From IMG/VR virus record IMGVR_UViG_2537562192_000019: DNA of 31,970 nt; one strand, written 5' to 3'. Under the pieces are notes generated by a model. The model ran no database searches. It saw only the letters and a program-made list of their open reading frames with translations, and had not been told where the DNA came from. The position numbers were made by a program, and so were the translations under genes. How positions within the stretch are numbered: the first letter of the stretch is position 1; each line of letters begins with the position of its first letter. Source of the DNA: a virus (Duplodnaviria > Heunggongvirae > Uroviricota > Caudoviricetes). Positions 4,917-8,596 of this stretch are shown piece by piece.

Positions 4917-8596
<3,680 letters not shown>

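Follow-up and report, generated by a model that had tools for sequence, protein, structure and literature searches.

A homopolymer frameshift in the terminase gene of a Qin-site prophage of Escherichia coli 99.0741 is probably a draft-assembly error

We found that gpA, the terminase large-subunit gene of a lambdoid prophage of E. coli 99.0741, is frameshifted in the deposited sequence at a run of seven A, and from comparison with related sequences we consider it probable that this run (in contig AEZR02000050.1) is a homopolymer-length error in the draft assembly. The DNA of strain 99.0741 would most likely carry eight A and encode an intact gpA of 641 aa. The error would have arisen within a 12-kb head-tail block that is present in the closest complete relatives as two near-identical copies, one at the Qin site and one at the DLP12 site, and that also contains a multi-copy insertion sequence (IS). 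A duplicated block with a multi-copy IS is where a draft consensus would be least reliable.

The gpA reading frame and the prophage around it

The window (the whole stretch of DNA that was analysed, 31,970 nucleotides) is taken from contig AEZR02000050.1 of draft assembly GCA_000194435.2, beginning at contig position 274. It spans the late half of a Qin-site prophage, and its end falls exactly on the stop codon of the chromosomal ydfJ gene. Its genes are ordered as the lysis genes, cspI-gnsB-ydfO-ynfO, cos, nu1 through J, lom, the tail-fibre gene, tfa and pinQ, and the synteny cos - nu1 - A - W - portal is kept (Table 1). The tail-fibre gene (25119..28088) has a long repetitive middle, rich in Ala, Ser and Thr, that gives rise to long spurious ORFs on both strands (25522..26529 and 25622..26626), and pinQ, which encodes a Pin-family invertase, lies just downstream of tfa on the minus strand (28761..29351).

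Table 1. Features of the window that bear on the gpA frame break (window coordinates)
Feature	Position	Strand	Basis or remark
cosN	4181/4182 junction		lambda bp 48502 and bp 1 align there
nu1/nohA, terminase small subunit, intact, 181 aa	4371..4916	+	ORF list; PF07471 on contig; aligned to lambda nu1
12.1-kb block, zero substitutions against the DLP12-site prophage of three STEC genomes	4514..16613	+	both private indels lie inside
gpA, terminase large subunit, as in the record	4891..6858	+	ORF list, Pfam; EIH44135.1
A7 homopolymer	6609..6615	+	A8, or lambda G+A7, in in-frame relatives
Coding sequence of the true gpA C-terminus, residues 576-641, displaced to the -1 frame	6616..6815	+	one-A repair
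W, head-tail joining protein, intact	6812..7018	+	ORF list; PF02831
T N-terminal fragment severed by the IS	14291..14571	+	
IS3-family element, 1,259 bp, within tail assembly gene T	14572..15830	+	target duplication GAT; terminal repeats TGTAGTGG...; ends verified
G4 run in IS orfB, G3 in all other copies	15346..15349	+	second private homopolymer indel

As read directly from the sequence, the gpA ORF starts with GTG and encodes the deposited protein of 655 aa, EIH44135.1 of E. coli 99.0741. This protein follows lambda gpA up to ...EKWVDGRKK (residue 575) and afterwards reads YCGTAKSDAMRR... to a late stop at 6858; the record thus joins 575 authentic residues to 80 residues that are out of frame and unrelated. 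The -1 frame encodes the authentic C-terminus (ILWDSKKRRNEALD...SGEDE), which ends at 6815 and shares an ATGA overlap with W. The A7 run is the sole A-run of at least seven within the gene. When one A is inserted, we obtain a gpA of 641 aa with 100% identity to intact gpA from strain 2015C-3121 and with differences from lambda gpA at 6 of 641 residues. The run is phased in frame 0 as AGA AAA AAA TAC (A_AAA_AAA), the intact form in the window's lineage reads AGA AAA AAA ATA (A8), and lambda reads AGG AAA AAA ATA (G+A7). The frame break is a deterministic feature of the sequence, and a chance test does not apply to it.

These readings agree with the original prediction that gpA is frameshifted at a homopolymer of seven A, that it matches lambda up to ...EKWVDGRKK and that its true C-terminus lies in another frame while the current frame stops late. 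The prediction had counted 73 displaced codons; the actual number is 66 (residues 576-641), and 73 is the length of an incidental ORF (6594..6815) that starts from its own ATG. It had also placed the run at 6609..6616, one position too long. Its statement that eight A would keep the frame holds for the close prophage relatives, whereas lambda instead keeps the frame with G+A7. It had proposed comparing the length of the A-run in related prophages, and we found that the close relatives have eight A where the window has seven.

By Pfam profile search, the GpA_ATPase domain (PF05876) is present in the window gpA at residues 47-285 (E-value 4.9e-51). The GpA_nuclease domain (PF20454) is incomplete as recorded; the match covers residues 322-576 and ends at profile position 261 of 294. 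Once an A is inserted, the nuclease match extends to residue 600 and to profile position 286 of 294. The C-terminal coiled-coil helix and the portal-binding tether are out of frame, as residues 576-641 are coded in the -1 frame.

The prophage also carries an IS within tail gene T (T::IS). The IS interrupts the T frame after ~94 T-derived codons, and any GT fusion protein would therefore be truncated, although the lambda-type G/GT -1 site G_GGA_AAG at 14285 is conserved and in phase. The insertion is not found at this position in lambda or in strain HH194M. In contrast, the DLP12-site prophages in 2015C-3121, 2012EL-2448 and STEC2018-553 have it at exactly this position, with the element annotated as 'IS3 family transposase, programmed frameshift', and several draft assemblies and Logan assemblies share it. 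The sharing of T::IS by three STEC genomes and further assemblies indicates that it is an inherited or converted allele, one that inactivates tail assembly. With T::IS, the window prophage would make no tails whatever the state of gpA.

The window is a mosaic of two prophage copies. Positions 1..4513 and ~18541..31970 follow the Qin-site copy of STEC2018-553, and between them (4514..~18500) the window follows the DLP12-site copy with T::IS. The Qin-site and DLP12-site copies occur together in the closest complete relatives, with a near-identical head-tail block. Independent assemblies support both junctions: one (L016) starts after the IS, has the same 853-aa H gene and continues to the Qin right arm and ydfJ; a second (L017) matches 18879..38088 with 1 SNP; and a third (L028) has a Qin-type nu1 together with T::IS. 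Since these three assemblies reproduce both junctions, the mosaic is most probably real, and it probably reflects gene conversion between resident lambdoid prophages.

Private homopolymer differences and the rarity of the A7 allele

The closest complete relatives of the window are the STEC genomes 2015C-3121, 2012EL-2448 and STEC2018-553. All three carry the same head-tail block with T::IS at the DLP12 (argU) site, and in all three gpA is intact. Between these relatives and the window we found only two differences in the 12.1-kb block, A8 to A7 in gpA and G3 to G4 in the IS orfB. Both are single-base homopolymer indels and both break a gene; differences are limited to homopolymer length and are accompanied by no substitutions. 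The unique sequence of the same contig has 1 SNP and 0 indels over 19.2 kb relative to an independent assembly, and 1..4592 has 0 SNPs relative to STEC2018-553. As the unique sequence is clean, both private indels are located in the block of which the closest relatives have two copies and which includes the multi-copy IS.

If a ratio of indels to substitutions of ~1:10 is assumed, the chance that two indels would arise before any substitution in 12 kb is, as a rough estimate, below ~1%. Two private, gene-breaking homopolymer indels without a substitution look unlike normal neutral divergence and resemble base-calling error. The G4 run splits the transposase into ORFs of 132 aa and 191 aa, and deletion of one G gives the full OrfAB. 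Among 4,191 copies of the IS in 5,426 complete E. coli genomes, none has the G4 allele, and G4 is probably an artefact as well.

When we looked up the ORF that spans the T::IS junction, we found it in ten places. At all of these places that contain gpA, the gene is in frame (A8 or the lambda-type G+A7) except in the window contig and in one other assembly (L020); three Logan sequencing-run assemblies are among those in frame. L020 is a single contig of 5.4 Mb that also has A7, and many of its other genes are split, including Z by a G6 to G5 deletion. The presence of A7 amid so many split genes shows that A8 to A7 does occur here as an artefact.

The 99.0741 draft is accurate elsewhere, which argues against a generally error-prone assembly. 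We considered such an assembly and ruled it out, since other homopolymer alleles of the window are natural: 46 complete-genome records have A4 at ~597, 1,339 have T8 at 2024, and L017 shares A3 at 19564 with the window. The A4 run lies in a ydfR-like DUF1327 gene (373..762), which is frameshifted there, where HH194M has A5, and continues into the lysozyme gene. The ydfR frameshift is annotated also in STEC2018-553 and 2018-166, and its occurrence in 46 records marks it as a natural pseudogene allele. At 2037, in the intergenic sequence upstream of cspI, the window has CCC and STEC2018-553 has CC; HH194M agrees with the window, and the STEC2018-553 record is therefore the odd one out. In the Qin-site prophage of the complete genome 2018-166 (L013, NZ_CP075632.1 767500..804500), seven head and tail genes are annotated as frameshifted, including gpA, FI, Z, U, V and G. 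This cluster lies in a region that is duplicated in that genome and resembles assembly noise more than biology.

The A7 allele is rare at this site. A 68-bp segment around the run occurs at ~4,529 places in 5,426 complete E. coli genomes, and A7 is found at 4 of them. An exact-pattern scan of GTDB species representatives found no A7 allele. At the protein level, repaired gpA is an exact match to the protein on 421 public contigs, and the 655-aa form is found on 1. Among phage records, all 40 of the matches listed, out of 80 matching, are in frame, and in a cluster of 14,868 gpA sequences the full-length members listed are 641 aa long. Querying a large protein collection with the 80-aa out-of-frame tail gave 14 tiny clusters, mostly of short fragments; as full-length frameshifted proteins are hidden in the main 90% cluster, this is no full census.

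The four genomes with A7 are HH194M, MB10, ET151 and ET450, which come from three laboratories. In all four, the allele is at the Qin site, at the identical position and in the same ydfO-ynfO-nohA-A-W context, and the gene is annotated 'frameshifted'. In HH194M, the one locus that we examined widely, gpA is the sole gene flagged as a pseudogene. Because the allele is common to four genomes from three laboratories, A8 to A7 in the HH194M lineage is probably a real inherited mutation. The four complete genomes are clean, which indicates that a real A8 to A7 change occurs in nature and that the run is a natural mutational hot spot. Between these genomes and the window there are 55-56 SNPs in 6.6 kb, and the genomes lack the IS in T. 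Descent of the window A7 from HH194M-type genomes was ruled out on this ground, as the window is identical over 12 kb to genomes with A8. We found the same lesion inherited across independently sequenced isolates in the separate HH194M lineage and not in the window haplotype. The HH194M Qin prophage (L007, NZ_CP101513.1 2256482..2297082) is further degraded: an IS903B lies beside rspB where the early region is expected, and an IS66-family ISCro1 is inserted between cspB and ynfU.

Competing explanations and the consequence of a real lesion

From the observed pattern of differences and the rarity of the allele, we infer a base-calling or assembly cause for the window A7 rather than a mutation. 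Sequencing error was among the alternatives raised in the original prediction and is now the favoured explanation. The literature that we searched by assembly accession and by strain name does not document the sequencing chemistry of the 99.0741 draft.

A real and very recent A8 to A7 deletion by replication slippage, which would have made gpA a pseudogene in an already defective cryptic prophage, is the main rival, though we think it less likely. A separate prophage lineage with four clean complete genomes has fixed the same allele, the draft is accurate in unique sequence, and selection on the prophage is relaxed, with T interrupted by the IS and ydfR frameshifted too. Because a T::IS prophage is dead, no selection would act on gpA, which would tolerate a real frameshift. 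However, a recent deletion would have to account for 0 substitutions in 12.1 kb alongside two private homopolymer indels, of which the one in the IS orfB is at a G3 run that is no hot spot. On the window haplotype, moreover, a single draft contig has the allele, whereas the intact form is on 421 contigs, and we found no independent T::IS assembly with A7 except L020, which has many other split genes.

If the deletion were real, its effect on gpA would be severe. The C-terminal domain of TerL-lambda consists of a nuclease centre, followed by a predicted coiled-coil helix and then by a portal-binding tether (PMC9026076). In the mutant Aam42, the loss of the last five gpA residues prevents docking on the prohead and gives a very low virus yield (PMC4856287). 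The functional prediction attached to a real lesion is thus sound, as the loss of even five C-terminal residues is lethal for packaging. A real window lesion would cost the protein its portal tether, its predicted coiled-coil helix and the last part of the nuclease domain, and by analogy with Aam42 the truncated gpA would be unable to dock on proheads or to package DNA. We think that cos cleavage by the truncated protein would probably fail as well. The truncation of the Pfam profile match and the domain description in PMC9026076 suggest that catalytic residues would be lost. In the literature searched, we found no residue-level nuclease mutants near position 586, and a structure search found no solved structure related by sequence to gpA. 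The original prediction that a real lesion would abolish packaging stands on the evidence of Aam42; it understated the extent, as the end of the nuclease domain and the coiled-coil helix are lost along with the portal-binding end. As the prophage is already non-functional through T::IS, a real gpA lesion would add no new phenotype.

We regard as very improbable an assembly chimera, in which Qin-site flanks were joined to a DLP12-site head-tail block and the indels came from merged reads of two copies. The window does track the Qin-site copy of STEC2018-553 outside the block and the DLP12-site copy with T::IS inside it, and both copies coexist in the closest relatives. However, both junctions are seen in independent assemblies (L016, L017 and L028), and both copies in the relatives have A8, so mixing alone would not yield A7.

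Very improbable, too, is a real frameshift that is compensated during expression, with -1 ribosomal slippage on A_AAA_AAA or an extra A added by a stuttering RNA polymerase supplying a small fraction of exactly wild-type gpA (..GRKK-ILWDS..), in a leaky or 'programmed' manner. The heptamer is in the correct X_XXY_YYZ phase with a frame offset of 2, as are the two genuine -1 sites in the same window, at 14904 in the IS (A_AAA_AAG) and at 14285 in G/GT, and a -1 shift would restore authentic gpA without an amino-acid change. Ribosomes and RNA polymerase are also known to slip at low levels on A-runs (PMC5009743, PMC1088944). Against this, A_AAA_AAA is far less shift-prone than A_AAA_AAG in E. 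coli (PMC5009743), and efficient transcriptional slippage typically needs ~9 or more A/T (PMC1088944). The two-frame layout is not conserved, being absent from >99.9% of homologues and from all the phage matches listed, and the out-of-frame tail is confined to the tiny clusters described above; in addition, the prophage lacks tails anyway. We found no stimulatory RNA structure 5-9 nt downstream of the heptamer (folding z = -0.52, +0.27 and +0.19 relative to shuffled sequence). With an unconserved layout, no downstream structure and a weak heptamer, programmed recoding is unsupported, and there would be at most trace, unselected leakiness at A7. This is in line with the original prediction, which had ranked slippage on the A-run as less likely. 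If compensation did take place, a 'pseudogene' terminase would still cleave cos and package DNA at a low level, for instance to the benefit of helper-dependent elements.

The biological weight of the choice is small, as either of the two leading cases is ordinary. Should A7 be an artefact, what remains is an intact lambda-type terminase of the ordinary kind, and the 655-aa EIH44135.1 is a mis-translation that is unfit for protein databases as a variant. If A7 is real, it is a routine homopolymer frameshift in a cryptic prophage that is already tail-less. For method, the lesson is that a frame break at a long homopolymer of a draft assembly calls for comparison with its nearest relatives before a biological reading is given; here, two private homopolymer indels with zero substitutions warn against such a reading.

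Comparison with known systems

Programmed -1 sites (dnaX, the A_AAA_AAG of IS3-family elements and the G_GGA_AAG of lambda G/GT) share with the window run an in-phase X_XXY_YYZ heptamer. They differ in that the window heptamer is A_AAA_AAA, its layout is rare and it has no downstream structure. The Aam42 gpA also has a C-terminal lesion, in which the portal-binding end is lost and the terminase-DNA complex is not docked on the prohead (PMC4856287). In Aam42, however, 5 residues are lost and cos nicking is intact, whereas the window change would replace 66 residues. The RefSeq 'frameshifted' terminases of HH194M, MB10, ET151 and ET450 have the identical A7, position and context. In contrast to the window, they have a different haplotype that is shared by four genomes, while the window allele is private and occurs alongside another private homopolymer indel. 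Lambda gpA itself (TerL-lambda, 641 aa) has the same position (cos-nu1-A-W-B), the GpA_ATPase and GpA_nuclease domains and the ATGA overlap with W. The window frame breaks past residue 575, and where lambda has G+A7 at the site, the intact form in the window's lineage has A8.
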